From an uncultured Clostridia bacterium (GTDB lineage: Bacteria > Bacillota > Clostridia > Christensenellales > QALW01): a stretch of 64,000 nt of DNA. A program made the position numbers and the translations under genes. How positions within the stretch are numbered: position 1 is the stretch's first letter; each line of letters opens with the position of its first letter. Below the pieces are notes generated by a model. It saw nothing but the letters and a program-made list of their open reading frames with translations, was not told where the DNA came from and made no database searches. Positions 15,333 to 37,809 of the stretch are shown here, one piece after another. Where the stretch lies: the NCBI GenBank assembly GCA_934434555.1, contig CAKRZX010000006.1, positions 20,983-84,982 on the forward strand, given 5' to 3'.

Positions 15333-16142
15333 ATGAAACATTTTTTTGTCAATCTTAAAGAAGTATATCCGTTCCTTAAAACGGCACAGGAACCTGTTCT
15401 TGAATGCTTTATTGCCGAAACGTTTGTCACTGCACCGGAAACAAGAAAAGTTGATTCGGTTTTAATTATTCCCGGCGGCGCATACAGCCATATCTGCCTT
15501 GACCGTGAGGGCGAGGCGGTTGCGTACAAGTATCTGAGTGAGGGTTTTAACGCGTTTGTGCTAAAATACAGTCTGTGCCCGGAACATTATCCCGCACAGG
15601 TTTCCGAAGCCGCTGCGGCGGTGGATTATATCCGCGCTCATAACGGCGAATGGAAAAGCAATAAGGTTTTTGTAAACGGATTTTCCGCCGGCGGGCATAT
15701 TGCGGCGGGGCTCGGCGTTTTCTGGAATGAACCGGAAGTAAAACAGCAGTTTCGTTCAATCAGACCCGACGGGCTTGTGCTTGGGTACCCGGTTATTACG
15801 TCGGATACGTCTTTTTCACACAGGGAATCCATTGAAAATGCGTCGGGAACGACGGATATCAATGCAGAAATCTATAAGAAAATGTCACTTGAAAATCAGG
15901 TAAATGAAAATACTCCGCCCACATATATCTGGCATACTGCCGAGGATAACGGCGTGCCGGTAAAAAACAGTCTTGTTTTTGCCTCTGCACTGGCGGAAAA
16001 TAAAGTGCCTTTTGAAATGCACGTGTTCCCTTACGGAGGGCACGGACTTGCCACGGGAAGCAGTGTTTCGGGAAATTTCAAGGAAAATCACTATGTTTAT
16101 CCTTGGCTTAACGAAGCAATAAAATTCCTGCGTTCTCTTTAA
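15333..16142 (+). CDS. alpha/beta hydrolase, carbohydrate (acetyl/feruloyl) esterase-like
   Basis: 270 aa from MKHFFVNLKE with GGGAGAG Shine-Dalgarno. IIPGGAYS, GFSAGGH nucleophile elbow, C-terminal GGHGL. No signal peptide. Confidence 0.7.
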   Translation: MKHFFVNLKEVYPFLKTAQEPVLECFIAETFVTAPETRKVDSVLIIPGGAYSHICLDREGEAVAYKYLSEGFNAFVLKYSLCPEHYPAQVSEAAAAVDYIRAHNGEWKSNKVFVNGFSAGGHIAAGLGVFWNEPEVKQQFRSIRPDGLVLGYPVITSDTSFSHRESIENASGTTDINAEIYKKMSLENQVNENTPPTYIWHTAEDNGVPVKNSLVFASALAENKVPFEMHVFPYGGHGLATGSSVSGNFKENHYVYPWLNEAIKFLRSL

Positions 16143-16155
16143 TAAATCGGACCGC

Positions 16156-17004
16156 TTATTCGGCGGTCCTTTTTCTGTATTCGCTCATAGTCATACCGTA
16201 TTTTTTCTTAAAACATTCGGTTGCCCACGATGTATTGTTGAAACCGCTTTCAAGCAGAATATCCGTAACGCTCATATTGCTTTTTTGAAGCATATTTGCA
16301 ACATAATTCAGCCGCTGACCGTTAATGAATTCGGAAACTGTTTCGTTGAAATATTTTTTCATACTTCGGCAAACGTGTTCGCGGCTGCGGTCGGTAAGTG
16401 AAAACAGCCGCTCGCTTCCGCCGCGGAAATTATGGCTTTCCTGCATAAGCGAACGCAATTCCGAAAGCCATAAAGGCGCGTCGGATTTCGTTTCATTGCT
16501 TTTGGCAAAATGCCGTGTGAAGATTTCAAAAAGCAGGATTCTTAACCGCGTTTGCAGACGGAGCGTATCGTTTGCGTCAATCGCTGTTATATCGTCGGTT
16601 TTTACCTCAAAACGCTTTTGCTCATCGCCTGAAATATGCACCGACGGCGGCATTGAGGAAGTAAGCAATGCTTCAAAATCAAAGCCCGAACCGAGATATT
16701 CTCTTAACAGACGGAACGTTTCGGCAGTAAAGGTGATATTGAGCATTGTAAAACGTTTTTCGTTTTTCAGGGCGTATGTATGAATGTCGCCGGGGCGGAT
16801 AAATACGGTGTCGCCCGACATAAGCGGAATTCTTGCTCCGTTTACGATATGAATAGCCTCGCCGCTCAGAATGAGAAACACTTCGTAAAAATCGTGGTCG
16901 TGCAAGCGGAAAAATTCGGTATCGCTTAAAACAAACCGATATTCAATACCTGTTTTGCTGTTTATAAAACGCTCCGCTGTAAGCGTTTTTTTATTTTCCG
17001 ACAT
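16156..17004 (-). CDS. AraC family transcriptional regulator (cupin sensor plus HTH)
   Basis: 282 aa from MSENKK. N-terminal cupin-like HDHDFYEV, C-terminal AraC HTH (..SVTDILLESGFNNTSWATECFKKKYGMTMSEYR). Divergent from the GH38 gene. Confidence 0.85.
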   Translation of the reverse strand: MSENKKTLTAERFINSKTGIEYRFVLSDTEFFRLHDHDFYEVFLILSGEAIHIVNGARIPLMSGDTVFIRPGDIHTYALKNEKRFTMLNITFTAETFRLLREYLGSGFDFEALLTSSMPPSVHISGDEQKRFEVKTDDITAIDANDTLRLQTRLRILLFEIFTRHFAKSNETKSDAPLWLSELRSLMQESHNFRGGSERLFSLTDRSREHVCRSMKKYFNETVSEFINGQRLNYVANMLQKSNMSVTDILLESGFNNTSWATECFKKKYGMTMSEYRKRTAE

Positions 17005-17061
17005 AAAAATCCCCTTTAACGCAAATATCACAATAGCATATTTATTTTATCATAATAACTG

Positions 17062-17090
17062 TTGAAATGCAACCGTTATTGTGCTACAAT
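17062..17090 (+). promoter_or_regulatory. promoter of the GH38 gene (TTGAAA-17 bp-TACAAT)
   Basis: Hexamers at 17062-17067 and 17085-17090 with a 17-bp spacer, 22 nt upstream of the ATG region. Confidence 0.5.
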
Positions 17091-17112
17091 AACAAAAACG
17101 GAGGTTTGAAAT

Positions 17113-20100
17113 ATGGATATAAAACGTGTTGAAAGCGTAATAAAACGCCTTGAAAGCCTTAGAAAAGTTGAAATTGCACAGGCAAACAATGTTCAAAGCG
17201 CAAAGTGCGGATATAAAAAAGGACACACTCCCGCAAAGGACGGATATACAGATGTCACGTACTTTAACGGTAAGTGGCAGCACTACTGGATAAAAGGCGA
17301 TTTTGAAACGGGACCTGCGGCAGAAAATGAGTTTTACGTACTTGAAGTCGCGACGGGAATACACACGTGGGACGCGGTAAATCCCCAGGGACTTTTGTAT
17401 CTTAACGGCAAAATGGTTCAGGGGCTTGATACAAATCACACGGAAGTTTTGCTTGAAGCAAATACAAAGTACGATTTTGTAAATTACTTTTATACGGGGG
17501 ATATGAATAATCTTTTCGGCATAACCCATACAGTATGCAAGGTTTACCGTGATATTGAACAACTGTATTACGATATGCTTGTACCTTTTGAGGCGCTTAT
17601 GTTCCTTAACGAAAACAGCGTTGAATACATAAAGATTCTTTCTGCGCTTGTTGCGGGCGCATATGCGGTTGATTTTTCAAAGGAATATTCGCCGGAATTT
17701 TTTGAATCCGTCAGACGCACAGAAGAGATTTTGCAGAATGATTTCTATAATAAAGAGTGTTCAAAAGAGAATAAGCCCGTTGTTCACGCTGTGGGACATA
17801 CGCATATAGACGTTGAATGGCTCTGGGAACGCAATCAGACGCGGGAAAAGGTTCAGCGCAGTTTTTCCACCGCGGTTCAACTTATGAAGTATTATCCCGA
17901 ATACAGATTTACCATGTCGCAGCCCGAACTTTACAGATACTTAAAAGAAGAGGCGCCCGAAAAGTATGAGGAAGTGAAAGCACTTGTAAAGTCAAAACGC
18001 TGGGAAGCGGAGGGGGCAATGTATCTTGAAGCGGACTGCAACCTGATTTCGGGCGAAAGTTTTGTGCGCCAGTTGCTTTACGGGAAAAAGTTCTTTTCCG
18101 ATGAGTTCGGCGTAAACTCGCACATTCTCTTTTTGCCCGACGTTTTCGGATATTCCGCCGCTATGCCGCAAATATTAAAAAAATCGGGAATTGATTCGTT
18201 CATTACGTCTAAAATATCGTGGAACGACACAAATCAGTTTCCTTACGATAACTTCCTGTGGAAAGGCATAGACGGCAGTGAAGTTTTTACGGCGTTTATT
18301 ACGGCGCGCGAGGCGGAAAAAGACCATAAAACAGGCATAAACTGCACGTATGTGGGAAAGACCGACCCGTCACATACCCTTGGCTGTTTTGACAGATTCC
18401 AGCAAAAAGAATACACAAATCACGTGCTTATGACTTACGGATTCGGCGACGGCGGAGGCGGACCTACGCGGGATATGCTTGAAAAACAGCGCCGACTTGC
18501 AAAGGGCTTGCCGGGAATTCCCGTAACGAAGCAGGACAGCCTTGACGGATATCTTGAATCCTGCAAGACGGAATTTTTCCAAAATGCCGAAAAACTCAGG
18601 GAAACTCCCCGCTGGGTGGGCGAACTGTATTTTGAATATCATCGCGGTACGTATACGTCGCAGGCAAAGAATAAGAAAGGCAATCGTAAAGCGGAATTCT
18701 TGCTGCAAAAAACGGAGGCGCTTTCGTATATGGATTATCTGTTTGGTGGACAATACGATAAAGAGGGAATAGACGACGCGTGGAAAACGGTTCTGCACGA
18801 CCAGTTCCACGATATTCTGCCCGGTTCGTCAATACACGAGGTTTACGAACACACCGACGAAGATTACCGCCGTGTAAATGAATTCTGCGCAAAAACCGTT
18901 TCTTCCTGTACGGAGAACATCAAAAAGAATATTTCTTCCCGCGGCGGAAAACTGCTTATAAACACACTTGGGTTTGAGCGTCCCGCGGTTATAGAAAACA
19001 GGGGCGAAGTGTTTGAAACAAACGAAACCGTTCCCGCGTTCGGCTGGTGCGTTTTTAACGGCGAAGTTGTTCAAAACAGTGTTATCCAAAGTGAAAATCG
19101 ACTTGAAAACGATTTTTATATTCTTAAAACCGATTCCTCAGGCAGGATTATTTCGCTTTTTGATAAAGAATTTAACCGTGAAGTTTTCTGTGAAAAGGCG
19201 AACGAAATACAGATTTTTGAGGATTTCCCCAACGATTATGACGCGTGGGAGATACGCGAAAGCGATATGCATAAGTATATTGTGCTTGAAAAGCCCGAAA
19301 AGACGGAGTGTTTTAAAAACGGCACATCAAAGGGAATTACGGTAACGTACAGATATCTTGATTCGGTTATAAAGATAACGACGCGGCTGTGGTCGAGAAC
19401 AAGGCGAATCGATTTTGATTTTTACGCCGACTGGCACGAAAAACACAGGCTTGTGAAAATTGCATTTCCCTTTGATATTCATACAAGCGAAGCGGAGTTT
19501 GATATTCAGTTCGGCTCGGTAAAAAGACCTACCCACAAAAACACAAGTTGGGACAGGGCGCGCTTTGAGGTGTGCGCGCATAAGTGGGTGGACGTAAAAG
19601 AGGACGGATTCGGCGCGGCTCTTATAAACGATTGCAAATACGGCTTTTCGGCAGATGAAAACGTAATAAAACTTACGGCGTTAAGGTGTCCGGATTACCC
19701 GGATAAAACGGCAGATGAGGGAGAGCACCGTTTTTCGTATGCCCTTACCGCTCACGGAAACGACGCCGGGTTTATAAAAGAAAGTTATATTTTCAATCAG
19801 CCTTTATCCGTAAGCGAAATCGGGGCGCATACGGGAGCGCTGCCGGAAAGGTTTTCACTTGTTTGCGTTCCCGAAAGTTCGGGTGCGGTAATTGAAACTG
19901 TTAAAGCGGCTGAAAAAGGCGGAAATATGATTGTAAGGTTGTTTGAAAGCCGCAACAGGCGTGAAAACGTAAAGATAAAAACGGAGGAGAAATTCAAAAA
20001 AGTTTTCCTGTGTGACCTTATGGAAAACAACGAAAAAGAACTTGAACTGACAGACGGAAACGTAACTGTTCCGATGAGGAATTTTGAAATTGTCACATTG

Positions 20101-20115
20101 AGGTTTGTAAAATAA
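17113..20115 (+). CDS. alpha-mannosidase, glycoside hydrolase family 38
   Basis: 1000 aa. GHTHIDVEWLW metal-binding motif, DVFGYS, and length typical of bacterial GH38. No signal peptide. Confidence 0.88.
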   Translation: MDIKRVESVIKRLESLRKVEIAQANNVQSAKCGYKKGHTPAKDGYTDVTYFNGKWQHYWIKGDFETGPAAENEFYVLEVATGIHTWDAVNPQGLLYLNGKMVQGLDTNHTEVLLEANTKYDFVNYFYTGDMNNLFGITHTVCKVYRDIEQLYYDMLVPFEALMFLNENSVEYIKILSALVAGAYAVDFSKEYSPEFFESVRRTEEILQNDFYNKECSKENKPVVHAVGHTHIDVEWLWERNQTREKVQRSFSTAVQLMKYYPEYRFTMSQPELYRYLKEEAPEKYEEVKALVKSKRWEAEGAMYLEADCNLISGESFVRQLLYGKKFFSDEFGVNSHILFLPDVFGYSAAMPQILKKSGIDSFITSKISWNDTNQFPYDNFLWKGIDGSEVFTAFITAREAEKDHKTGINCTYVGKTDPSHTLGCFDRFQQKEYTNHVLMTYGFGDGGGGPTRDMLEKQRRLAKGLPGIPVTKQDSLDGYLESCKTEFFQNAEKLRETPRWVGELYFEYHRGTYTSQAKNKKGNRKAEFLLQKTEALSYMDYLFGGQYDKEGIDDAWKTVLHDQFHDILPGSSIHEVYEHTDEDYRRVNEFCAKTVSSCTENIKKNISSRGGKLLINTLGFERPAVIENRGEVFETNETVPAFGWCVFNGEVVQNSVIQSENRLENDFYILKTDSSGRIISLFDKEFNREVFCEKANEIQIFEDFPNDYDAWEIRESDMHKYIVLEKPEKTECFKNGTSKGITVTYRYLDSVIKITTRLWSRTRRIDFDFYADWHEKHRLVKIAFPFDIHTSEAEFDIQFGSVKRPTHKNTSWDRARFEVCAHKWVDVKEDGFGAALINDCKYGFSADENVIKLTALRCPDYPDKTADEGEHRFSYALTAHGNDAGFIKESYIFNQPLSVSEIGAHTGALPERFSLVCVPESSGAVIETVKAAEKGGNMIVRLFESRNRRENVKIKTEEKFKKVFLCDLMENNEKELELTDGNVTVPMRNFEIVTLRFVK

Positions 20116-20120
20116 AAAAT

Positions 20121-20142
20121 GCGCGGGAGACCGCGCTTTTTT
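20121..20142 (+). terminator. rho-independent terminator of the GH38 gene
   Basis: GCGCGG-GAGA-CCGCGC followed by TTTTTT. Confidence 0.8.
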
Positions 20143-20182
20143 ATTAAAAGTCTGCTTGTCGAAAAAGAGAAAATTTGCGCTG

Positions 20183-20250
20183 ATTTGAAATAAAATCGAA
20201 TATTCTTGGCGTGTTTTTGTATTTACATTCTGTTTTGAACGTTGTATAAT
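20183..20250 (+). promoter_or_regulatory. promoter copy A: 20-bp box + 18 bp + ATTTACA-17 bp-TATAAT (orphan, no CDS downstream)
   Basis: ATTTGAAATAAAATCGAATA (20183-20202), TTTACA 20222-20227, TATAAT 20245-20250. Aligns without gaps to copies B and C. Confidence 0.6.
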
Positions 20251-20256
20251 AAAAAC

Positions 20257-20352
20257 GTAAAGTGTGAATGAAAAAGATATCCCCAAAGCCGCTTTTTTTA
20301 TTTCCTTTCTTGGCGGCTTATGCGGCTCCGTTGACCTCGGAGCCCTTTTTTT
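20257..20352 (+). ncRNA. candidate small RNA / attenuated antisense transcript from promoter copy A
   Basis: Predicted TSS about 7 nt after TATAAT. Hairpin AAGCCGC (20286-92)/GCGGCTT (20313-19), then terminator GGCTCCG (20324-30)-N7-CGGAGCC (20338-44)-CTTTTTTT. The T-tract overlaps the stop codon of the convergent araC gene. No convincing ORF. Confidence 0.3.
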
Positions 20353-21211
20353 ATTTGCCTATTTTTTCATAGAATTCAGAGGGCGAAATCCCTGTTTCAC
20401 GCTTGAATGTTGAGGAAAAGTAAGCCTGCGAACTGAAACCCAGCAGATTTGCAATATCGGTTACGGATACGCCCGAAAGCAACATCTTTTTTGCTTCGTT
20501 GATTTTCAGCGTTAAAAAATACTTGTGCGGACCTATTCCCGCAAAATGCGCGAACAGGCGCTGCATACCGGAACGGCTCAAATGGCATTTCTGCGCCATT
20601 TCGTCAATGGAAAGCGGCACGGAAATATTGCTTTTCATATACTGCACCGCCATTGAGAACTGCTCGGAAGACGTGCTGAAATCTTCTTCGGAAACATTCG
20701 CTTTTTCACCTAACGAAAGCAGAAGTTGGCTTATATAGGTGGATAAAAGTTGAGGGTATGTGGGAACATATTTGCAGGGGAAAACAAGATTCCAGTCAAC
20801 GGTATCTATTCCGCTTTCCTTTAACTGTTTCAGGGTGAGCGCGGCATAACTCATCATTTCGTCAATAATGTGCATTTGCCGCTGTGAAAGTTTGAATACT
20901 TTCTTGCGGAAAAAGTCCGTAAGAGGACCGTCCATATCCACCGAGAAAATAAGCAGATGTACGCCGTCGCTGTTCTTTATATGGAACTTATGGAATTCAA
21001 GGGGGCGGTGAAAAATTATATCGCCTGCGTTCATTTCATAAACACGTTCGTCTGCCGAAACGGAAAGACAGCCGCGGAAAACATAAAGCACTTCCCAAAA
21101 ATTATGTGCTTCGCCGTTGAACTTGAAAGAACTTTCGTAGTTTGCGTCCATACACATATAAATTCTGCGTATATGAAGTTGTTCGTTTATCGGTATTGAT
21201 GACCATGCCAT
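20351..21211 (-). CDS. AraC family transcriptional regulator (cupin sensor plus HTH)
   Basis: 286 aa. Cupin-like N-terminus (HNFWEVLYVFRG), C-terminal AraC HTH (SVTDIANLLGFSSQAYFSSTFKRETGISPSEF). Flanked on both sides by copies of the same promoter. Confidence 0.85.
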   Translation of the reverse strand: MAWSSIPINEQLHIRRIYMCMDANYESSFKFNGEAHNFWEVLYVFRGCLSVSADERVYEMNAGDIIFHRPLEFHKFHIKNSDGVHLLIFSVDMDGPLTDFFRKKVFKLSQRQMHIIDEMMSYAALTLKQLKESGIDTVDWNLVFPCKYVPTYPQLLSTYISQLLLSLGEKANVSEEDFSTSSEQFSMAVQYMKSNISVPLSIDEMAQKCHLSRSGMQRLFAHFAGIGPHKYFLTLKINEAKKMLLSGVSVTDIANLLGFSSQAYFSSTFKRETGISPSEFYEKIGK

Positions 21212-21225
21212 AATATGCGCGCCCT

Positions 21226-21293
21226 TTCTGAATCAAAATCGAATAATTATGATTTGTTTTTGTATTTACATACCGTTTTGAATCTTTTATAAT
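21226..21293 (+). promoter_or_regulatory. promoter copy B: 20-bp box + 18 bp + ATTTACA-17 bp-TATAAT
   Basis: TTCTGAATCAAAATCGAATA (21226-21245), TTTACA 21265-21270, TATAAT 21288-21293. The box starts 15 bp from the divergent araC start codon. Confidence 0.6.
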
Positions 21294-21383
21294 ACTATCA
21301 GAGAATGAAAAGAATGTCAAGATGAAATTTGCTTATTTTTCATACTTTATTAAAACATAATTCGCTTTCGGAGGAGCCGACAT

Positions 21384-23108
21384 TTGAAAAAAATTACATC
21401 GTTACTTTTACTTATATTTCTTTTTGCCTCGTTTACCGCATGCGGCGGCAATACTGTGGAGATTATCGGCGGCGGGGATAATCCCGATATAACCGAACAG
21501 ACCGATTACAAAACCGAATGCTGGGTAGCGGTTGACATTCCCTTTGAGGCTGAAAACGATTATGACCGACCGTTTTATGATGTTCTGCTTGACGTAACGT
21601 TTACTTCACCCTCGGGCACGGAATACGTTATGCCCGCATTCTGGGACGGCGACAAGAACTGGAAAGTCCGTTTTGCGCCGACAGAGTACGGTGTTTGGAA
21701 ATTCACGTCAAAAGCAAACGTGACCGACGGGGGATTTGAAAAGAGCGGCACGCTTGCCGCAAATGCCTACAAAGGCGACCTTGAAGTATATAAGCACGGT
21801 TTTGTAACCGCAAAATACGGCAAAAAGTATTTTACCTATGATAACGGCACGCCGTTCTTTTACTTAGGTGATACTCACTGGTCAATGTATCACGAAGACT
21901 ATGATACGCAGTTTAAGACAACCATTGACAAAAGGATTGAACAGGGATTCACGGTTTATCAGAGCCAGTGCACAAGCGAGGAAACAAATCTTGCGGGCGT
22001 TTTCCCGAATTCTGCAATAAATATGATGCAGGAACTTGACAGACGCTTTGAATATATCGCAAAAAGCGGATTGACCCACGCACACAGCCAGTTTTTCTTT
22101 ACCGAGAAAATGTCACGCTCGGTTATGAACAACAAAGAGTATCTCGACCTGCTTTCCCGCTACTGGGTTGCACGTTTTGCGGCATATCCCGTTATGTGGA
22201 CGCTTGCGCAGGAGTGCGATAACGATTTTTACGGTAACGATATCGGTCAGCAGACGGTATACACACCTGAAAATAACCCTTGGAAATATGTTGCCCAATG
22301 TTTGTCAAAATATGACCCGTATAAACATCCGTTAACCGCACATCAGGAAACAACTTCCTGTACAACCGTTACCGGCGCGGGTACGCAAAATTACAATAAA
22401 GGTGCGTCGGCTTTTAAGGATATGCAGGAACACGACTGGTACGGGGCGCAGTGGAAACCCGATGTATCAAAACTATACAGCACAATTGTAGCAAAGGACT
22501 ACTGGGACAGCGGCAAAGTAACCGTAAACTACGAGAGTAAGTACGCTTATCTTGCAACAAAGGACGCGGGCGCAAGACGTCAGGGCTGGATAAGTTTCCT
22601 TGCGGGAATGTTCGGCTACGGTTACGGTGCAAGCGACATATGGTATGTGAATTCGGCGGGAAGTTATCTTGTCGGCGACCAGAATGACGGGCTTGAAACC
22701 CTGACCCAACAGGAAAAAATGGAGATGACATGGGACAAGGCGGTTGATTTGCCCTCGGCGGTTCAATGCGGATATATGCGCTCGTTCTTTGAAAGCATTG
22801 CTTGGTATTCGCTTGTTCCCGACTTTGACGGAAAAGTATTTGCAATAGCCGTCAACAATTCCGAACCCTATGCCGTAGCAAGCGCAGGTGATGACTTGTT
22901 CGTTTGCTATCTGTACGGAAAATCAAGAATCAGCGGCACATTCTACGGGCTTGACGGTTCTGCCACATATACCGCAAAATGGTTTGACACCCGCACGGGT
23001 GAATATACGGTTATATCAGACGCAATCAGTTCAGCCGACGGCTCATATACGGCACCGAAAAAGCCCGACAGAGATGATTTCGTTTTGGTAATTACAAAAA
23101 ATAAATAA
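21384..23108 (+). CDS. secreted lipoprotein, DUF5060 + DUF4038 (GH140-like) glycoside hydrolase with C-terminal beta-sandwich
   Basis: 574 aa, TTG start after GGAGGAG. Lipoprotein signal LLLIFLFASFTAC. MPAFWDGDKNWKVRFAPTEYGVWKF (DUF5060-like). TPFFYLGDTHW...QGFTVYQSQ (DUF4038/GH140-like TIM barrel). YTAKWFDTRTGEY C-terminal domain. Confidence 0.7.
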   Translation: MKKITSLLLLIFLFASFTACGGNTVEIIGGGDNPDITEQTDYKTECWVAVDIPFEAENDYDRPFYDVLLDVTFTSPSGTEYVMPAFWDGDKNWKVRFAPTEYGVWKFTSKANVTDGGFEKSGTLAANAYKGDLEVYKHGFVTAKYGKKYFTYDNGTPFFYLGDTHWSMYHEDYDTQFKTTIDKRIEQGFTVYQSQCTSEETNLAGVFPNSAINMMQELDRRFEYIAKSGLTHAHSQFFFTEKMSRSVMNNKEYLDLLSRYWVARFAAYPVMWTLAQECDNDFYGNDIGQQTVYTPENNPWKYVAQCLSKYDPYKHPLTAHQETTSCTTVTGAGTQNYNKGASAFKDMQEHDWYGAQWKPDVSKLYSTIVAKDYWDSGKVTVNYESKYAYLATKDAGARRQGWISFLAGMFGYGYGASDIWYVNSAGSYLVGDQNDGLETLTQQEKMEMTWDKAVDLPSAVQCGYMRSFFESIAWYSLVPDFDGKVFAIAVNNSEPYAVASAGDDLFVCYLYGKSRISGTFYGLDGSATYTAKWFDTRTGEYTVISDAISSADGSYTAPKKPDRDDFVLVITKNK

Positions 23109-23128
23109 TATTCAAGGAGGATATTTAT

Positions 23129-25039: not shown

Positions 25040-25041
25040 CT

Positions 25042-26061
25042 ATGAAAAAAATATTTACGGCAGTAATTGCCGTTGCAGTTGCGGCAATGTCGATACTCAA
25101 TATGTCGGCATTCGCGCAGGGCACAAACTATTTTACGGGAAACAAATCAACCGTTGATGAGTGCGCCTGCAAAATCACAAAGACCACCGTTGACGGAACG
25201 GTTGTTTACGATGTAACAAATATGTCCTCGTCAATCGGTTTCCCCAATATGGCAATTTACGACGCAAGTAAAAGAGCGTTTGAATCGCAGAGCGACAAAA
25301 CACTGACCCTTATTGCCGCCTTTGACGCGCGTATGGATTTTGCGCCCGGTGTGGACGTTATAACTGCAAATATCACATTGCGCAACTGGGACTTCAATAA
25401 GGCAAATATGTCCGAATATGAAGCGATTAACGCAAAGAGTGACAATCAGTTGCTGTTCTATCCGCCTGTAAATGACGGACGCAACCTTGTTATCAAACTT
25501 CAAAAAGGTGTGCAGTTTACCAATGAATGGCAGACATATGCCGTTTCGTTTGAGGTAACAAAAGACGATTTCCAGAACGGCGCGGGAACCGGCTGGGGAC
25601 TTTCCCTTGACCACTTTGACCTTTACGCAAGCGTAAGACGTGCGCAGATTAAGAATGTGGGCGTTTATCTTGAAAGCGAATATGAATACACCGAACCCGA
25701 AGAAGTTGTTACTCCCACTCCCGAAGAGACCGCAAAGCCTACCGCAACTCCCACGGCGACCGCGGGCGCAACGGCAACACCTACTCCCAAGAGCGACGAG
25801 AGCGGATATTATACCCTTGATTCGGACGGAAATTATGTTGCCGTATCAAATGCTGACCTTAAAACAATGGAACAGGGAACGGTTGTTTATCAAAAGAACG
25901 GTGATAAATACGTTAAGGGACAGATTGTAGACGTAAACGGTTCCAAAGGATTTAAGGCTGACAGCACATTTAACCCGCTGTTCGTTATTATTCCCGTAGC
26001 GGCGGTTGTTGTAATAGGCGCTGTTGTTGCAGTGATTGTAATCAAAAAGAAGAAAAAGTAA
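25042..26061 (+). CDS. surface protein: signal peptide, one CBM-like module, Pro/Thr linker, small domain, C-terminal TM anchor
   Basis: 339 aa. Signal peptide MKKIFTAVIAVAVAAMSILNMSAFA. Linker TPTPEETAKPTATPTATAGATATPTP. C-terminal FVIIPVAAVVVIGAVVAVIVIKKKKK. Confidence 0.6.
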   Translation: MKKIFTAVIAVAVAAMSILNMSAFAQGTNYFTGNKSTVDECACKITKTTVDGTVVYDVTNMSSSIGFPNMAIYDASKRAFESQSDKTLTLIAAFDARMDFAPGVDVITANITLRNWDFNKANMSEYEAINAKSDNQLLFYPPVNDGRNLVIKLQKGVQFTNEWQTYAVSFEVTKDDFQNGAGTGWGLSLDHFDLYASVRRAQIKNVGVYLESEYEYTEPEEVVTPTPEETAKPTATPTATAGATATPTPKSDESGYYTLDSDGNYVAVSNADLKTMEQGTVVYQKNGDKYVKGQIVDVNGSKGFKADSTFNPLFVIIPVAAVVVIGAVVAVIVIKKKKK

Positions 26062-26072
26062 TTTTGTGTTTT

Positions 26073-26115
26073 GCGGATTCCCGTAAAGTGTTCCTTTTGC
26101 GGAATCCGCTTTTTT
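26073..26115 (+). terminator. putative intra-operon terminator/attenuator
   Basis: GCGGATTCC (26073-81) ... GGAATCCGC (26101-09) followed by TTTTTT. The large 19-nt loop lowers confidence. Confidence 0.5.
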
Positions 26116-26148
26116 ATTTTATAATAAAAGAAGAAAGTTAAATTTTAT

Positions 26149-27615: not shown

Positions 27616-27617
27616 AA

Positions 27618-29702
27618 ATGAACTATATTCCTGAATATTTTACATTCAAAAAAGCGCTTCCTGTCTGGGAAAACGGCACGGAGTGCGAGCCGAACACAAA
27701 CCTTATTTTCAGGGTAAAAGTAAAAAACGGAACGGATACCGTTTTGCGCATAGCAGGTCAGATGCACTATGTTGTGCGCATAAACGGAAATCTGCTGTTT
27801 GAGGGTCCTGCAAGATGTGCTGACGGCTGGAACAGGGCAGATGAGTTTAAGATTGATACCTATCTTACCGACGAAACGAATATTCTGACTGTTTTTGTTG
27901 AGGGGCTTTATGCCACGGGATTTTCTGCGGTAAGGCAGAAATCGTTCCTGTGCGCGGAGATTGAACAGGGCGGAGAAATTATTGCCGCCACCGGTTTTGA
28001 CGGATTTGAGGCAATAAAGTATTCCGAGCGCATAAAAAAGACGCAGCGGTATTCTTATCAGCGTCCGTTTGTTGAGGCGTACCGTTTTGACGGCACAGCC
28101 GAAAGATTTATGCGTGACGAAAATTTTTGCCCTGAAAAAGTAAATTTGTCCGAAACCGAAACAAAGAAATTCATTACCCGCAGAGTGCCGTTTCCGCTCT
28201 ATACTGCGGCGGAGTTCAAAAAAATTGAAACCTGCGGCTGCGTTTATGATGAAAATCAGCCAATAAAGTTCAAAGACCGTTCGCTTATGTGCGTAAACGA
28301 ACACTGGACGGCATACGAAAAAGATGAACTTGAAATTTGTTCGTCGGAAATTGCCGATAAAATCGTTCTTGCTGACAAGGGAAAAAACTATACTCTTTAT
28401 GACGCCGGACAGATTTATTCAGGGCTTATCGAAATTGATTTCGATGTTAAGGAAAAGGCAAGGATTGTTATCGTTTTTGATGAGATTCTTGAAAACGGAC
28501 GAATAAACTTCGGACGGCTTAACTGTTGTAATTCTTTTGTATGTGAATTTGAAAAGGGGAAATATAACTTCTCGACACTTGGAGTTTTTACGGCGCGGTA
28601 TATCGGCATTGCTGTCCTTTTCGGAAAAGCAGAACCGAAAAATATAAGAATAAGAAAAACAGAATACCCGGATAACCTTGTTAAAAAGTGCAGTTTTGCG
28701 GATTCTGATATTCAGACAGTTTTTAATGCGGGAAGAGAAAGTTTCAAACAAAACACCGTAGATATTCTTATGGATTGTCCCTCGCGCGAACGTGCGGGCT
28801 GGCTTTGCGATTCAACGTTTATTTCCCGCGGCGAATATGCGTTTACGGACAAAAGCATTGTTACAAAGAATTTCTTAGAGAACTTTATTCTTGCGGAAAA
28901 TTTCCCGCTTATACCCGAAAATATGATTCCGGGCTGCTATCCGTCCGACAATGACGGCGGCTGTCCCACAAACGGATATATTCTGAATTGGGCACTGTGG
29001 TTTATTGTTCAGGTTAAAGAGTATTTTGATCTTTCTTCCGACCGCACGATTGCAGATGGCGCGAAAGAGGTAATTTATAAAATCCTCAAATTCTTTGAAC
29101 AGTTCAAAAATTCCGACGGCTTAATCGCGCGTACCCGCGGCTGGGTTCTGCTTGAATATTCTCCGGCAAATAAGTTTCAGCAGGATATTTGTTATCCGCT
29201 CAATATGCTGTACTCTTATGCGGAAAAAGCGGCGGGCGAGATGTATAATGACTCCTTGCTGATTTTGGAATCGGAAAAAATCAAAAAGACGGTTATCAAA
29301 AAGTCATTTGACGGCAAGTATTTTGTAGATAATGCCGTGTATAAAGACGGCGTTGCCGAAAACACGGGCAACCGTTCGGAATTCTGCCAGTACTGCGCGT
29401 TCTTCTTCGGTATTGCCGATAGGGAAAACTTTGCCGACCTGTGGCGCGATTTGGTGGAAAACGCGGGCGAACACGGCAAAACCGATTTGGTTCCCGCGGC
29501 TATGTTTTTGGGAAAAACATTGAGATTGCAGTTGCTTGCAAAGAGCGGAATGTACAGTGAGGCGAGAGAAAGCCTTAAAGCGTACTGCCTTAATATGGCA
29601 TTGCGGACAGGAACGCTCTGGGAGTTTGACGATACGTTTGCGTCCTGCTGCCACGGCTTTCAGTCGGCAAACGTGGGTTGGCTTTTGAATGAAGAATTCT
29701 AA
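27618..29702 (+). CDS. alpha-L-rhamnosidase-related six-hairpin glycosidase (GH78-like)
   Basis: 694 aa, no signal peptide. N-terminal beta-sandwich (LRIAGQMHYVVRINGNLLFEGP). MDCPSRERAGWLCDS matches the GH78 DCPxR(D)ERxGWxGD motif. Confidence 0.6.
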   Translation: MNYIPEYFTFKKALPVWENGTECEPNTNLIFRVKVKNGTDTVLRIAGQMHYVVRINGNLLFEGPARCADGWNRADEFKIDTYLTDETNILTVFVEGLYATGFSAVRQKSFLCAEIEQGGEIIAATGFDGFEAIKYSERIKKTQRYSYQRPFVEAYRFDGTAERFMRDENFCPEKVNLSETETKKFITRRVPFPLYTAAEFKKIETCGCVYDENQPIKFKDRSLMCVNEHWTAYEKDELEICSSEIADKIVLADKGKNYTLYDAGQIYSGLIEIDFDVKEKARIVIVFDEILENGRINFGRLNCCNSFVCEFEKGKYNFSTLGVFTARYIGIAVLFGKAEPKNIRIRKTEYPDNLVKKCSFADSDIQTVFNAGRESFKQNTVDILMDCPSRERAGWLCDSTFISRGEYAFTDKSIVTKNFLENFILAENFPLIPENMIPGCYPSDNDGGCPTNGYILNWALWFIVQVKEYFDLSSDRTIADGAKEVIYKILKFFEQFKNSDGLIARTRGWVLLEYSPANKFQQDICYPLNMLYSYAEKAAGEMYNDSLLILESEKIKKTVIKKSFDGKYFVDNAVYKDGVAENTGNRSEFCQYCAFFFGIADRENFADLWRDLVENAGEHGKTDLVPAAMFLGKTLRLQLLAKSGMYSEARESLKAYCLNMALRTGTLWEFDDTFASCCHGFQSANVGWLLNEEF

Positions 29703-29709
29703 TGAGAGA

Positions 29710-29734
29710 GAGCATCGCTTGATGCTCTTTTTTT
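29710..29734 (+). terminator. rho-independent terminator
   Basis: GAGCATC-GCTT-GATGCTC followed by TTTTTTT, 8 nt after the stop. Confidence 0.8.
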
Positions 29735-29798: not shown

Positions 29799-29849
29799 CT
29801 TAATAGAAATAAAGATGAATTTTTAACTTCTTGAAAGGGGGAGATGTGA

Positions 29850-29951
29850 GTGAAAAAAGAATACAACGAGCCGACAATAAGGGTTGTTGAAATTACGGCA
29901 AGTGATTTGCTTACCGAAAGCGGCATTGAATTACCCGAGGAAGATTTATAA
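29850..29951 (+). CDS. candidate 33-aa acidic small protein / leader peptide
   Basis: GTG start 6 nt after AAGGGGGAG. Translation (M)KKEYNEPTIRVVEITASDLLTESGIELPEEDL. The TAA stop abuts the Shine-Dalgarno sequence of the 1411-aa gene. Not in the supplied ORF track (below its size cutoff). Confidence 0.35.
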   Translation: MKKEYNEPTIRVVEITASDLLTESGIELPEEDL

Positions 29952-29967
29952 TAAAGGAGAATGTAGA

Positions 29968-32900
29968 ATGAAGAAATTTGCGGCATTGCTTTTGAGCGTT
30001 ATTCTTGTTGCGGGCGTTTTTACGGGCGTAACATTTGTAAACGCCGAAAGCGAAGAAAGTTATTTTGAAAGTTTTGAAGAGTGGAAAGAGGGATATGAAT
30101 TCCCAAAGACAGCGAGCATTGAGGGCGATTTAGGGCTTTTCTGGGCTGATGCGAATAAAGATTCTTTTACCGTATCAACCGAGCAGGTTAAAAACGGCAG
30201 CAAAGCAGGTAAAATTGTTTCAGGCGCAAACTACAAAGATACCGGCGCTTGGCTGACAAATTCCCTTATAAAGAGAGTTGTAACACAAAACGAAACATAT
30301 GAATTAAGTTTTTGGTACTATTCTACCGCGGCAACGAAACTTCACGTTTGTTACAGGTCAGGAACGAATAATCAGTTTGCCAGCGGCTGGTGGGCGGACA
30401 TCAAAGCCAATATTGAGGTAAAAGTAAACGAATGGACGTATGTAACCGTTCAGTTTGAGGGCGCTGACTGTATGAAGTATGTGAACGATTCAGCATATGA
30501 CGCTTTCATCGTTGTAAGGTCGGATAAGACCGCCGGTGCAACTGCTTACATAGATGATATTTCACTTTGCAAATATCAGCCTGTGGCGGGAGAATATAAA
30601 GAATACTTTGAATCGTATGAAGAGGGATATGAATTCCCCAAGACTGCGAGCATTGAGGGCGATTTAGGGCTTTTCTGGGCTGATGCGGATAAGGATTCTT
30701 TTACCGTATCAAACGAGCAGGTTAAAAACGGCAGCAAAGCAGGTAAAATTGTTTCAGGCGCAAACTACAAAGATACCGGCGTGTGGCTTACAAATTCTCT
30801 TGTAAAGCGTGTTGTAACAACAGAGGAAACGTATGTTTTAAGTTTTTGGTATTATTCCACCGCGGCAACGCAGTTGTCCGTTTCGTACAGAACCGGTACA
30901 AATAATCCCCTTGACGGAATAAGCGGTAAGTGGTGGCAGGATATTAAGAACGGAATTCAGGTAAATGCCGGCGAATGGACGTATGTAACCGTTCAGTTTG
31001 AGGGCGCTGACTGTATGAATTATGTAAGCAATTCCACATATGCTGCAAACGTAATTATCAGGTCAACAAAGACCGCCGGTGCAGTTGCTTATATTGATGA
31101 TATCTCTCTTTGCAGTGTAAACGGATTTGAAGCCGATGCGCTTACGCTTTCACAAAACGGAAACTGTGATAACGGAACGGAAAACTGGTTCACTTGGGAT
31201 TTCTTCGGCGGCACAAACGCAAAAATCGAAGCCGCGGAAGTTGACGGCAATAAATGCATAAAGTTTTCTCCCGATAACTCATACAGTTCCGTAGGATTTG
31301 ATTTGAGCCCGTATATTGTAAAAGATTCTTCAATGGCATCATTGGGCTGGCGCTACGGCGGGTTCGGCGCGGGATACTATACCGTTTCGTTCCGAATAAA
31401 GGCAATCGGGCTTGAAGAGGGCGAAAAGCGCGTTATGGCATTGGGGCTTGTAGGCAATACTCTGAATAACAAAGTTGCATACCTTAATCCGATTTCCGCA
31501 AGCGGACTTGAAAGAGAAATAAGCAACGAATGGACCACTGTAAGTTCCACGTTCGCAGTAGACGACACGTTCCTTTCACAGGCGGCAAAGAGCAGCGGCA
31601 AGTATAATATCACTTTGCGTGTTGACGGCAACAAGCGCGGCTACGGCGATTCATTGAACAACACGTTTGCGCCGTTTGATTACTATATTGACGATTTGAC
31701 AATTCAGTATGTTAAATTCGATAATGTTCAGCCGGCACTGGGAAGTTCGATTATGGTTTCATACAAGGTTCCCAAAACGGCAATCGATAAAAACTGCTAT
31801 GTTAAATTTGAGACGGCAAACGGGGAAGAAAACGTTTATCCCACGGAAGAGAGTGAATACGTTTTCACACTTAAAAATATTTCGCCCAAAATGCTTACCG
31901 AGAACATAAAAGCGACGCTTTATGCAAAGGATAATACAGTACTTTACGTTAAAGAATCGTACAGCATTGCGCAGTATTGCAATGATTTGTTTGACAGCGG
32001 CAAGGCAGACGAAAAGACAAAAACCCTGATTGCGGATTTGCTTAAATACGGTGAGTATGCACAACTGTATACGGGGTACAATACGGAGAATCTGCCGTTT
32101 TCAAGCCTGTCAGACGCGCGTAAATCATACGCCACCGCAAGTGACCCTGTGCTTACGAGCGTTACCGACAAGAACTACAAAGTAATTGAAAATGCAAGCG
32201 TAAACATTAAATCCGCTTCGGTTATTCTTACCGACGCTGTTGCCTGCAAATTCTACTTTGATGGTAAGCCCGATGAAGTAAAAATGGTTTTAGGCGATAA
32301 AACATATACGCGTACTGAAATCGGATTTGATTCGGCTAAAAACAGGTATTATGCCGTGTTTGACGAAGTGCCGATTTATTCCATGAACGAGCAGTTTGAA
32401 ATTACAGCATATAAAGACGGAGCGGCTGCAAGCAACACACTTTTGTACAGCGTTGAATCTTACGCGGCGTCAAAAGCGAACAATACTTCAACGCCGTATC
32501 TGGCAGACTTGGTAAAAGCGATGATAAATTACGGAACGTCATCACGTAATTATAAAGCAGGTTCAACGGCAACTCAGTGGATTTCCACTGAGTTCGCTTT
32601 TTCCTCAACGAAAGAAATAAGCGAAGAATACGCACCGTATGTTTATGCCGACGCCGTGTTTTCCTGCAACGGGGCAGAACTTACCGTTCCGCTGTTTTGG
32701 GACGGCGGCAGCACATATAAAGTAAGATTTGCGCCTACAAAAACGGGAATGTGGAACTATAAAATCGTATCGCGGCAGAACAAAGTAATCGGCGAGGCAA
32801 GCAATTATTGGGTGTTCGACGATACTCTTGACGGATTAAACGGTTCATTTTATGTTTCTGCGGCGGAAGAGACGGCGCCCGAAATATATAAGCACGGGTT

Positions 32901-34200
32901 TATTAAAGAGGACGGAAAACATTTTTCCTACAATGACGGCACGCCGTTCTTTTATCTGGGCGACACACACTGGACGATGCTTTTGGAAGAGTATGATACC
33001 CGTTTTAAGTATATTGCCGACAAAAGAGCCGAACAGGGTTTTACGGTGTACCAAAGTCAGCCCATAACCGACAGCACAACCCCGCTTTTTAATTTTACCG
33101 ACCATAATGTTTCGTTAAGAGACATTGAGGGAATGAAAACGGTTGATAAATACTTTGATTATATCGCACAAAAGGGATTTGTTCACGCAAACGGCTGTCT
33201 GTTTTTTGAAGATGCATTCAGAAAAGCCGACGAGAGCGGCAATACAAATTTGAAAAACGACCATAATTATCTTAAAGCCATAACAAGGCACTGGGTGGCG
33301 AGGTATTCCGCGTATCCTGTTATATGGACGCTTGCACAGGAAGCGGACAGCGAGAAAAACAGAGTTTATGCATCAAATGATAATCCGTGGATAAAAATTG
33401 CCCGGTACATAAACGACTACGATGCATATTCGCACCCGCTTACCGCACATCAGGAAACGGCGGAAAAGATTACGGCAAGCAATTCACTGTTCACTTTGGC
33501 TGAAAAAGACGGAATAACAACGGGACATTCTTTCTTCGGTGCACAGTGGAAACCTTCTCGGTTAAACGGCAACACGGATTTTACGCCGTTTAAGGATTAC
33601 TATGATTCTCAAAAGCCTGCGGTTATGTACGAGAGTTATTACGAAAACTATAAGACAAAAGCCTACGGTGCAAGGGTAGAGGGCTATACGGCGTATCTGA
33701 CGGGTATGTGCGGTTTCGGCTACGGCGTAAGCGACATTTGGCACTTGCTTAACGATGACGATGTGAATTTGATAAAACCGTCAAATAACGATGGATTTGA
33801 TACCGTAACGGTAGAAGATAAGCACACGGCATATACCGAATCGGTGAAACTGGGCAGCCAGATGACCGTAATGAAAAATTTCTTTTCAAAAATAAACTGG
33901 TGGGAACTTAAACCGGATTTCGGTGACGAATATGCATTTAAGCCCAAAGCAAGCGACTATTTTGTTGCGGCAAGAGACGAGAACAAAACGTTGTTTGTTG
34001 TTTATCTGTACCGCAATATTCAACAGTCGGGCGGGTACGTGACTAATCTTGACACATCGGCAACGTATACAGCGAAATGGTTTAATCCGCGTGACGGATA
34101 CGAACAGATTATAAATTCTTCTGTAAGCGGCGATTCTTTCTGCGTACCTGAAAAGCCGTCACAATACGATTGGGTTCTGATTTTAACAAAAAACAGTTAG
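29968..34200 (+). CDS. secreted multidomain glycosidase: signal peptide, 2 near-identical CBM-like modules, a third CBM4/9-like module, uncharacterised middle region, C-terminal DUF5060+DUF4038 (GH140-like) catalytic region
   Basis: 1411 aa from MKKFAALLLSVILVAGVFTGVTFVNA with AAAGGAGAA Shine-Dalgarno; the 29884 start is rejected. C-terminal VPLFWDGGSTYKVRFAPTKTGMWNY, TPFFYLGDTHW, QGFTVYQSQ, YTAKWFNPRDGY are paralogous to the 21384 gene. Confidence 0.8.
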   Translation: MKKFAALLLSVILVAGVFTGVTFVNAESEESYFESFEEWKEGYEFPKTASIEGDLGLFWADANKDSFTVSTEQVKNGSKAGKIVSGANYKDTGAWLTNSLIKRVVTQNETYELSFWYYSTAATKLHVCYRSGTNNQFASGWWADIKANIEVKVNEWTYVTVQFEGADCMKYVNDSAYDAFIVVRSDKTAGATAYIDDISLCKYQPVAGEYKEYFESYEEGYEFPKTASIEGDLGLFWADADKDSFTVSNEQVKNGSKAGKIVSGANYKDTGVWLTNSLVKRVVTTEETYVLSFWYYSTAATQLSVSYRTGTNNPLDGISGKWWQDIKNGIQVNAGEWTYVTVQFEGADCMNYVSNSTYAANVIIRSTKTAGAVAYIDDISLCSVNGFEADALTLSQNGNCDNGTENWFTWDFFGGTNAKIEAAEVDGNKCIKFSPDNSYSSVGFDLSPYIVKDSSMASLGWRYGGFGAGYYTVSFRIKAIGLEEGEKRVMALGLVGNTLNNKVAYLNPISASGLEREISNEWTTVSSTFAVDDTFLSQAAKSSGKYNITLRVDGNKRGYGDSLNNTFAPFDYYIDDLTIQYVKFDNVQPALGSSIMVSYKVPKTAIDKNCYVKFETANGEENVYPTEESEYVFTLKNISPKMLTENIKATLYAKDNTVLYVKESYSIAQYCNDLFDSGKADEKTKTLIADLLKYGEYAQLYTGYNTENLPFSSLSDARKSYATASDPVLTSVTDKNYKVIENASVNIKSASVILTDAVACKFYFDGKPDEVKMVLGDKTYTRTEIGFDSAKNRYYAVFDEVPIYSMNEQFEITAYKDGAAASNTLLYSVESYAASKANNTSTPYLADLVKAMINYGTSSRNYKAGSTATQWISTEFAFSSTKEISEEYAPYVYADAVFSCNGAELTVPLFWDGGSTYKVRFAPTKTGMWNYKIVSRQNKVIGEASNYWVFDDTLDGLNGSFYVSAAEETAPEIYKHGFIKEDGKHFSYNDGTPFFYLGDTHWTMLLEEYDTRFKYIADKRAEQGFTVYQSQPITDSTTPLFNFTDHNVSLRDIEGMKTVDKYFDYIAQKGFVHANGCLFFEDAFRKADESGNTNLKNDHNYLKAITRHWVARYSAYPVIWTLAQEADSEKNRVYASNDNPWIKIARYINDYDAYSHPLTAHQETAEKITASNSLFTLAEKDGITTGHSFFGAQWKPSRLNGNTDFTPFKDYYDSQKPAVMYESYYENYKTKAYGARVEGYTAYLTGMCGFGYGVSDIWHLLNDDDVNLIKPSNNDGFDTVTVEDKHTAYTESVKLGSQMTVMKNFFSKINWWELKPDFGDEYAFKPKASDYFVAARDENKTLFVVYLYRNIQQSGGYVTNLDTSATYTAKWFNPRDGYEQIINSSVSGDSFCVPEKPSQYDWVLILTKNS
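30064..31113 (+). repeat. intragenic tandem duplication of a CBM-like module (period 534 nt)
   Basis: Copies at about 30064-30570 and about 30598-31113. Exact shared runs of 42 nt (GCGAGCATTGAGGGCGATTTAGGGCTTTTCTGGGCTGATGCG), 68 nt (CGAGCAGGTTAAAAACGG...GATACCGGCG) and 47 nt (GAATGGACGTATGTAACCGTTCAGTTTGAGGGCGCTGACTGTATGAA). Confidence 0.9.
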
Positions 34201-37806: not shown

Positions 37807-37809
37807 CAA

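Follow-up and report, generated by a model that had tools for sequence, protein, structure and literature searches.

We read the DNA analysed here (a stretch of 64 kb, which we call the window) as carrying a variably present, AraC-regulated CAZyme cluster for the two-stage breakdown of a heteroglycan, with its importer unlinked and the adjoining MacB/FtsX-type transporter an unrelated neighbor, and we place the probability of this reading at roughly 60%. The host belongs to an uncultured lineage of gut Clostridia, probably an Oscillospirales-like one. The substrate would be a heteroglycan containing rhamnose and/or galactose. According to this model, AraC regulator 2 (AraC2) would govern induction by acting on a box of ~37 bp that overlaps the -35 element of two promoters, P1 and P2. 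Outside the cell, binding and trimming of the glycan at the surface would fall to the products of both promoters: from P1, a lipoprotein of GH140-like type and two CBM-like proteins anchored in the membrane; from P2, a small ORF and a secreted CBM-GH140-like enzyme of 1410 aa. Import would rely on a transporter whose gene lies elsewhere in the genome, a GPH/MFS_2 symporter being the most plausible type, and GH36-like and GH78-like enzymes, also encoded from P1, would complete the breakdown inside the cell. A GH38 enzyme with AraC regulator 1 (AraC1), and an esterase, would be neighbors under separate control, and the lack of a linked importer would reflect the dispersed gene organization usual in this lineage rather than a special mechanism.

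Gene content and transcription units

The first-pass annotation had described 19 kb of the window as a single glycan-utilization island. Every ORF on its list is present at the coordinates given, its division of the products into secreted and cytoplasmic was borne out by signal and TM prediction (N-terminal hydrophobic segments occur only in the products starting at 21384, 23129, 25042 and 29968), and its GH38, GH78-like, GH36/clan-D-like and two GH140-like calls were upheld by Pfam profiles and, for the GH36-like product, by AF2/Foldseek. The notion of a single unit did not hold: the 19 kb comprises at least six transcription units, and conservation of the rest does not extend to the esterase. 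Esterase, AraC1, GH38 and AraC2 are separate units; operon 1, behind P1, comprises the genes for the GH140-like lipoprotein, for two proteins anchored in the membrane and for the GH36-like and GH78-like enzymes; and operon 2, behind P2, combines a small ORF of 33 aa with the gene for the large CBM-GH140-like protein, whose length is 1410 aa rather than 1411 aa as first reported. Both the 33-aa ORF (29850-29951) and galK/galT, 3-6 kb upstream of the cluster, had been missed. A tRNA scan for island insertion sites found none. Apart from the two AraC genes, the cluster genes, the box promoters and the adjacent transporter module lie on the forward strand.

The esterase (15333-16142) is a cytoplasmic alpha/beta-hydrolase (BD-FAE 4e-19, Abhydrolase_3) with sub-threshold NCBIfam matches to lp_1002 arylesterase and PaeX; it has no signal peptide, and its gene is missing from the relatives L001 and L004. 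A hydrolase gene fragment is also present at 15050-15262. AraC1 (16156-17031, reverse strand), with a cupin sensor and HTH by Pfam, is divergent from GH38 and occupies the same position in L001 and L004. The GH38 alpha-mannosidase (17113-20115) is cytoplasmic and has four GH38 Pfam domains, with N-terminal, middle and C-terminal profiles all matched (E 4e-86 to 3e-16); its closest PDB matches are Ams1 (E 1e-132), placing it in the Ams1/MAN2C1 type. The gene has its own promoter (17062-17090) and terminator (20121-20136) and lacks the box motif.

Extracellular proteins

The product of 21384-23108 is a probable lipoprotein of DUF5060-PF13204-Collagen_bind_2 architecture whose N-terminal signal segment carries an FTAC lipobox-like cysteine. 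It shares 39% identity with the C-terminal module of the large protein (1410 aa; 29968-34200), which consists of a signal peptide, CBM4/9-like repeats, a region without assigned function and the same three-domain arrangement. PF13204 ('Apiosidase') is covered over its full length in both proteins, at E 6e-39 and 2.5e-37 (134.9 and 129.6 bits, respectively, against a cutoff of 26.5). Matches in the PDB are far weaker: the apiosidase 8t9w at E 2e-14 and 3kzs/5msy at E 6e-7 for the lipoprotein, and 8t9w at E 1e-5 and 3kzs/5msy at E 6e-4 for the module of the larger protein. At the level of sequence, both GH140-like modules are thus very distant from characterized apiosidases. In the literature on GH140/DUF4038, we found no characterized Firmicute member or DUF5060-type enzyme. 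The large protein has a 94% identical orthologue (P0129) in the relative L013.

The first-pass annotation had called the next two products CBM-only surface proteins, and one of them has a sequence match to such a module. In the product of 23129-25039, Pro/Thr linkers connect three CBM4/9-like repeats, which lie between a signal peptide and a C-terminal TM anchor; homologous repeats are found at the N terminus of the 1410-aa protein. CBM_4_9 scores are 29.4 bits here and 27.8 bits in that N terminus, both barely above the cutoff of 25.9. For the 339-aa product of 25042-26061, no CBM is detectable by sequence and no Pfam model matches. It combines a signal peptide, a beta-rich domain and a Pro/Thr linker with a C-terminal TM helix and KKKK, both surface proteins having a lysine run behind the TM helix. 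Its AF2 model is poor (pLDDT 58.6) and resembles a CBM4/16/22 jelly roll only weakly, and its four homologues among 5.8e9 proteins confine it to this lineage.

Cytoplasmic enzymes

No Pfam model matches the cytoplasmic product of 26149-27615 even at an E value of 10, nor does any NCBIfam model, GH36 and Melibiase included. Its confident AF2 model (pLDDT 89, pTM 0.91) has a GH36-like, clan GH-D fold with a (beta/alpha)8 domain and an N-terminal beta-domain: by Foldseek, the best match is TmGalA (E 5e-24, TM 0.69), and the top 13 are all GH36 alpha-galactosidases. The DDGW...KHDF stretch aligns to TtGalA (6lcj) in a local phmmer match (E 0.007). It thus shares with TmGalA (1zy9) and TtGalA the fold and the DDxW and KxDF motif region, whereas overall identity is only 15-16%. 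More than 3000 homologues make this a large family without a Pfam model.

The cytoplasmic GH78-like enzyme (27618-29702) matches Bac_rhamnosid6H at 41.8 bits (cutoff 24.5, E 1e-10) over profile positions 10-335 of 339. Its DCPSRE..W..D motif aligns with D567, E572 and D579 of RhaB (2okx), which, together with E841, we take to be the conserved acidic catalytic residues; E841 falls outside the aligned stretch. A hairpin and T-run at about 29707-29730 end the operon.

A shared promoter box

The three-copy box noted in the first pass is real, with matches at 20192, 21235 and 29740 against none expected, and each copy carries a TTTACA-17-TATAAT promoter. P1 (21235-21293), of sigma-70 type, precedes the five-gene operon 1, and P2 (29740-29798) precedes operon 2. 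The box is conserved in five relatives. Box and promoter are kept at P1 in L001 and L004, and at P2 in L005, L006, L013 and L014. The third copy, an orphan duplicate of box and promoter at 20192-20250, has no ORF downstream; it points toward the 3' end of AraC2, a terminator comes after it at 20324-20344, and the equivalent place in L001 lacks it. An Rfam search of 14-41 kb of the window, including the region downstream of the orphan promoter, returned no riboswitch or known sRNA.

AraC2 (20351-21211, reverse strand; Pfam) is divergent from the GH140-like operon and adjoins the box promoter both here and in L001 and L004; we predict that it binds the box. Because L013 keeps both box and large gene but lacks AraC2, regulation may involve more than AraC2. 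Scanning 185,579 species genomes for the box gave no match, the source species apparently lying outside that collection, and scanning metagenome contigs gave three matches, all within the same cluster type and none at a transporter promoter. With a complete genome, the operator/promoter motif would offer a concrete handle on the missing importer and the remaining regulon.

A cluster without a linked importer

A carbohydrate transport system is part of the definition of the gpPULs of Roseburia and Eubacterium rectale (Sheridan et al. 2016, PMC5320581). Like these loci, the cluster described here is strain-variable and groups AraC-type regulators, secreted CBM-bearing GHs and cytoplasmic glycosidases; unlike them, it has membrane-anchored proteins consisting of binding modules only, a conserved small ORF and no transporter. 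Of the elements in the definition, degrading enzymes (GH38, two GH140-like, GH78-like and GH36-like) and regulators (two AraC) are present, and the transport system is not. The first-pass annotation had seen no importer in the cluster, and a Pfam scan covering every ORF of 150 aa or more in the window found no SBP, BPD_transp_1, PTS, MFS, GPH or Sugar_tr domain.

That annotation had also treated this absence as an anomaly, and here the comparison with other loci points the other way. Eight annotated neighborhoods from relatives (about 125 genes) contain no sugar-transporter Pfam match, with no sugar-transport domain at the related loci of L001, L004, L013 and L014. At 80 loci of other species that encode the GH36-like family, a sugar transporter lies within 10 kb at only about one-fifth (17 MFS_2 and 8 BPD_transp_1 ORFs in total). 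Where a transporter is present, a GPH symporter is the usual type: it occurs at 11 of the 80 loci and, in the manner of GPH (MelB-type) symporter/alpha-galactosidase pairs, directly adjoins the GH gene in 6, an arrangement with no counterpart in the window. The window's own fucI, uxuA/uxaC and galK/galT units likewise lack transporters. Because about four-fifths of the related loci have no transporter, the importer is likely to be unlinked and encoded elsewhere in the genome. The importer-less layout is usual in this lineage, and the finding is therefore fairly ordinary.

One candidate for a hidden importer is encoded within the galK operon (7958-9118), a polytopic membrane protein of 386 aa. 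It has no Pfam, NCBIfam or PDB match and was not counted as a transporter; from its sequence, we presume that it resembles a GT-C glycosyltransferase.

Variable presence and alternative explanations

Core synteny is common to L001, L004 and L014 at ~72% nucleotide identity, and in a 72%-identical relative the core sits elsewhere in the genome. In L013, which is 96-97% identical at the nucleotide level, blastn against the window shows that 14.7 kb of the cluster (14865-29609) is gone. A remnant of the GH78-like gene, its final ~93-110 nt, is still present in L013 and shows a deletion there rather than an insertion in the window. The fucose and hexuronate genes, which had been tentatively linked to the cluster, are both still present in L013 after the deletion and so are not tied to it. 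GH140-like or GH78-like neighbors occur at none of the 80 GH36-like loci elsewhere, and the operon composition is thus confined to a narrow lineage, which limits what can be inferred from relatives.

This deletion, together with an IS-like insertion directly 3' of the GH78-like genes in L001, the hydrolase fragment at 15050-15262 and the orphan promoter copy at 20192, could be taken to mean that the locus is decaying, having once had an importer and lost it, and is now only partly functional. We consider this unlikely, given that all ten cluster ORFs are intact, that reading frames are kept across lineages at ~72% nucleotide identity and that no relative inspected has a transporter gene or remnant inside the cluster.

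Somewhat less likely still is a role in remodeling or recycling glycans of the cell's own surface (those of the capsule, the S-layer or linkers), which would make a dedicated importer unnecessary. Such a role would fit the missing importer, the membrane- or lipid-anchored products, and the GT-C-like membrane protein, galK/galT and a nucleotidyl-transferase nearby, but cupin-type AraC sensors and CBM4/9-like modules are characteristic of loci for nutrient glycans, the GH36-like and GH78-like enzymes of the same operon, being cytoplasmic, would still need an imported substrate, and the cluster is dispensable, having been deleted in L013 while its neighbors stay.

The module adjacent to the cluster (34376-39380) encodes an MFP-like lipoprotein, a 946-aa double-FtsX permease and two ATPases, and its assignment as a MacB/FtsX-type transporter was confirmed by two FtsX stretches, a C-terminal RND_mfp match (E 1.5e-8) and MacB/LolD-like ATPases whose best matches are the exporter types DevA, MacB, LolD and FtsE. 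FtsX domains, an MFP-like lipoprotein and such ATPases are shared with MacAB, LolCDE, DevBCA and YknXYZ; the single permease with two FtsX domains and the two different ATPase genes set it apart from MacB/FtsEX-type systems. FtsEX controls cell-wall hydrolases. That the module is the cluster's functional partner, either as an unconventional importer or through FtsEX-like mechanotransmission onto the 1410-aa surface enzyme, has in its favor its place directly 3' of the large gene, both in the window and in L013, and the very large extracellular regions of a permease accompanied by an MFP-like lipoprotein, but is highly improbable, because a strong terminator (34219-34240) followed by a separate consensus promoter (34308-34336) isolates the module, which has no box, exporter-like ATPases and no SBP; because the only independent case of the two together comes from a genome 96-97% identical at the nucleotide level and hence carries little information; and because that relative, L013, keeps the module despite having lost the cytoplasmic GH genes.

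Relation to RG-II loci and a conserved small ORF

RG-II would be a speculative candidate target, suggested by the co-occurrence of GH140-like and GH78-like genes. The RG-II PUL of Bacteroides thetaiotaomicron, as reportedly described by Ndeh et al. in 2017, is said to include BT1012 (a GH140 apiosidase, PDB 5msy) and GH78 rhamnosidases. The pairing of a PF13204 (GH140) domain with a GH78-like enzyme is common to both loci. The two differ in that the GH140-like modules here are only very weakly similar to BT1012 (E 6e-7 and 6e-4) and have the DUF5060-PF13204-Collagen_bind_2 architecture, the window lacks the other RG-II families (GH106, GH127, GH137-143, PL1 and others), and the host is a Firmicute without SusC/D.

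By itself, the cluster overturns nothing established. It does illustrate that a rule requiring a transporter, such as the gpPUL definition, misses clusters of this kind in Oscillospirales-like lineages of the gut, where enzymes and importers are usually unlinked. Of biochemical interest are the two divergent GH140-like enzymes, the large GH36-like family without a Pfam model and the conserved small ORF.

This small ORF (29850-29951; MKKEYNEPTIRVVEITASDLLTESGIELPEEDL) encodes an acidic peptide of 33 aa, has a strong RBS and lies behind P2, ending 16 nt before the 1410-aa gene. The peptide is conserved in L005, L013 and L014/L006; a codon comparison with L014 shows 7 synonymous and 11 non-synonymous changes, with third-position enrichment of the differences, and the leader is unalignable. 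It matched no known family, and an HMM built from eight such peptides found no additional copies in the window or in 1.3 Mb of related loci. It might serve a regulatory function, act as a chaperone or be exported as a signal. The larger proposal that it is a new functional peptide of surface glycan loci, forming with the enzymes and anchored binders an importer-free Gram-positive glycan-capture module, strikes us as doubtful, at about the level of the decay scenario. Four matches were found among 1.84e9 representatives, and the relatives of the small ORF include tandem copies on a Bacteroidota-like contig.

Importer genes in the window and its relatives

The first-pass annotation had treated the lack of a sugar importer in the glycan-utilisation island at 15333-34200 as remarkable. 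The absence itself held throughout the 64-kb window, where a scan of all ORFs of at least 150 aa found no sugar importer and only two sets of transport genes: an ABC exporter-type gene (206-1933) and a MacB-type module (34376-39380) that combines an MFP-like lipoprotein with a 946-aa permease bearing two FtsX domains and a pair of ATPases, whose best matches are DevA, MacB, LolD and FtsE. The fucI, uxuA/uxaC and galK/galT units of the window are without a transporter too. Because the definition of a Gram-positive polysaccharide utilisation locus demands a transporter (Sheridan et al. 2016, PMC5320581), the cluster falls outside it.

Such an absence turned out to be the norm in the lineage. Eight annotated neighbourhoods from relatives (~125 genes, including GH43, GH38, GH29, GH116 and GH2 genes and a full fucose operon) contained no sugar-transporter Pfam match. 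We then widened the sample to 80 loci from other species that carry the family of the GH36-like enzyme at 26149-27615, mostly Acutalibacteraceae or Oscillospiraceae ruminant MAGs with a few Paenibacillus or Cohnella, and extracted and Pfam-scanned all their polytopic membrane ORFs (110 in 1.29 Mb; MFS_2 17, MFS_1 12, BPD_transp_1 8, Sugar_tr 4). Around four-fifths of these loci lack any sugar transporter within 10 kb. Linked transporters are mostly GPH symporters: 15 clustered sequences of MFS_2 (GPH) proteins occur in 11 of the 80 loci, and in six a GPH symporter lies <200 bp from the GH36-like gene. Given this predominance, the likeliest missing piece is a GPH-type importer encoded elsewhere. 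We read the cluster as a set of regulator-linked CAZyme genes whose importer is probably unlinked, a kind already known; its operator motif is well defined, and a few of its components are uncharacterised and merit follow-up. No GH140-like, GH78-like or CBM neighbour occurs at any of the 80 loci, so the composition of the operon is specific to a narrow lineage.

Several Acutalibacteraceae MAGs encode ~700-aa GPH (MFS_2) symporters directly downstream of GH36-like genes (L024 11379-13508, L026 3708-5810, L051 11508-13610 and L077 10666-12804), with a ~230-aa C-terminal extension that has no Pfam match. The MacB-type system (34966-39380, forward strand) is unusual in pairing one 946-aa two-FtsX permease with two different ATPase genes; the permease has large extracellular regions and its MFP-like lipoprotein partner is short. 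In the galK operon, between galK and a 2-hydroxyacid dehydrogenase gene, a 386-aa protein with about nine TM segments (7958-9118, reverse strand) is conserved in the relative L013 and had no match in Pfam, NCBIfam or PDB; we take it to resemble a GT-C glycosyltransferase more than a carrier. A cytoplasmic WbsX-like (PF14307) protein (42247-43329, forward strand) adjoins the solitary fucI with its PocR-AraC regulator, near which there is no fucK, fucA or fucP.

Enzymes and candidate substrate

All ORF coordinates of the first-pass annotation proved correct, and HMM searches placed none of its family calls in unrelated families. Pfam identifies an esterase (BD-FAE/Abhydrolase_3, 15333-16142), a pair of reverse-strand AraC regulators that each join a cupin sensor to an HTH domain (AraC1, 16156-17031; AraC2, 20351-21211), a complete GH38 (17113-20115), a GH140-like DUF5060-PF13204 'Apiosidase'-Collagen_bind_2 protein (21384-23108) and a Bac_rhamnosid6H, or GH78-like, protein (27618-29702). 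The GH38 is of the Ams1/MAN2C1 type, and DCPSRE..W..D in the GH78-like protein aligns with D567/E572/D579 of RhaB. The same GH140-like architecture forms the C-terminal 540 aa of the 1410-aa large protein (29968-34200), and the two modules are paralogues (39% identity over 563 aa). The three repeats of 23129-25039 share homology with those at the N-terminus of the large protein, both sets being marginally over the CBM_4_9 threshold.

The product of 26149-27615 matched nothing in Pfam or NCBIfam and belongs to a family of >3000 proteins, chiefly from Clostridia MAGs. An AF2 model built from 32 homologues was confident (pLDDT 89, pTM 0.91), and its closest structures are GH36 alpha-galactosidases (TmGalA, E 5e-24, TM 0.69; TtGalA, E 2e-19), with a local sequence match to TtGalA spanning DDGW...KHDF. 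Together, this GH36-like enzyme and galK/galT (3-6 kb upstream) suggest galactose release. The pairing of GH140-like and GH78-like enzymes recalls RG-II systems; however, both GH140-like modules are, by sequence, remote from the characterised apiosidases, and the other RG-II families are absent. Our reading of the substrate goes no further than a rhamnose- and/or galactose-containing heteroglycan from a plant or host source.

A shared operator and several transcription units

The three-copy box motif proposed earlier is real (20192, 21235 and 29740), with the pattern AAAAWCGAATA-N4-TG-N4-K-TT-N3-G-Y-ATTTACAT; the window holds no further copy at up to three mismatches, and none is expected by chance. 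At every copy, the box extends over the -35 element of a TTTACA-17-TATAAT promoter close to consensus, and the three box promoters rank within the top five promoter matches (11/12) of a 20-kb scan. What had been described as a single island is instead several transcription units, two of them under the common operator. P1 (21235-21293) is the predicted promoter for 21384 through 29702, an operon that ends at a hairpin and T-run at ~29707-29730; P2 (29740-29798) is that for a small ORF and the 1410-aa gene, ending at a strong terminator (34219-34240). GH38 lies between a promoter and a terminator of its own and lacks the box, the esterase and AraC1 share nothing but a bidirectional terminator, and the MacB module has its own TTGAAA-17-TATAAT promoter (34308-34336) downstream of the terminator at 34219-34240. 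We infer that AraC2 binds the box, since it adjoins it here and in the relatives L001/L004.

The remaining box and promoter (20192-20347, forward strand) point at the 3' end of AraC2 and precede no ORF; the predicted transcript of ~90 nt ends at a terminator (20324-20344), and the region has no Rfam match. This copy is absent from the equivalent spacer in L001 and is therefore a recent local duplication, which may act as a decoy operator, give rise to an antisense or small RNA, or be a relic.

A conserved small ORF

Between P2 and the 1410-aa gene lies a 33-aa acidic small ORF (29850-29951, forward strand; GTG start, RBS GGGGGAG) encoding MKKEYNEPTIRVVEITASDLLTESGIELPEEDL. The peptide is conserved in L005, in L013 (with an in-frame 4-aa insertion) and in L014/L006 (67% identical). 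Against L014, 13 codons are identical, 7 synonymous and 11 non-synonymous, with 8, 7 and 16 differences at codon positions 1, 2 and 3, and the leader upstream is unalignable; the substitution pattern looks coding-like. There is no Pfam, NCBIfam or PDB match, there are no additional copies among the fetched loci, and among 1.84 billion representatives searched there are four matches, one of them corresponding to two tandem 39-aa copies (L012 960-1223). On that contig, the adjacent protein has what we take to be a Bacteroidota T9SS-like tail.

Gene turnover in the lineage

L001, L002 and L004 carry the core of the cluster at ~72% nucleotide identity in another genomic context, in the order AraC1-GH38-AraC2-box-GH140-like-CBM protein-341 aa-GH36-like-two GH78-like genes, with neither esterase nor transporter; in L001, this stretch is directly followed by an IS-like element. 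L014, L005 and L006 have GH78-like genes, then box, small ORF and a CBM-rich large protein. L013, a 447-kb scaffold 96-97% identical to the window with the same flanks, lacks window 14865-29609. These 14.7 kb (esterase, AraC1, GH38, AraC2 and the five-gene operon; compared with L013 9582-9632) were deleted in L013, where about the last 100 nt of the GH78-like gene remain, as do the box, the small ORF and the large gene, yet no AraC2 lies nearby. From this distribution, we conclude that the cluster is dispensable and mobile within the lineage. L013 also keeps the remaining flank, including the MacB module and fucI, and the downstream fucose and hexuronate genes, tentatively tied to the cluster in the first-pass annotation, are thus independent of it. 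Two features, in 13457-14128 and 14865-15284, indicate local gene turnover: a 218-aa ORF (13526-14182) absent from L013 and, upstream of the esterase, a fragment resembling an alpha/beta hydrolase C-terminus (~15050-15262).

Secretion and surface anchoring

N-terminal hydrophobic signals occur only in the four products previously assigned signal peptides (21384, 23129, 25042 and 29968), and that of 21384 has a cysteine at the lipobox position. At the C-terminus, 23129 and 25042 both carry a TM helix and then lysines. The latter, a possible CBM protein, is restricted to the lineage, with just four homologues. It belongs to one family (25042-26061; L010 7743-11934) with four tandem paralogues in L010. 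Members are small surface proteins that combine a signal peptide and a beta-rich domain with a linker rich in Pro/Thr or in Gly; their C-terminal anchor (...AVVVIGAVVAVIVIKKKK) is nearly invariant and retained even at 25% overall identity.
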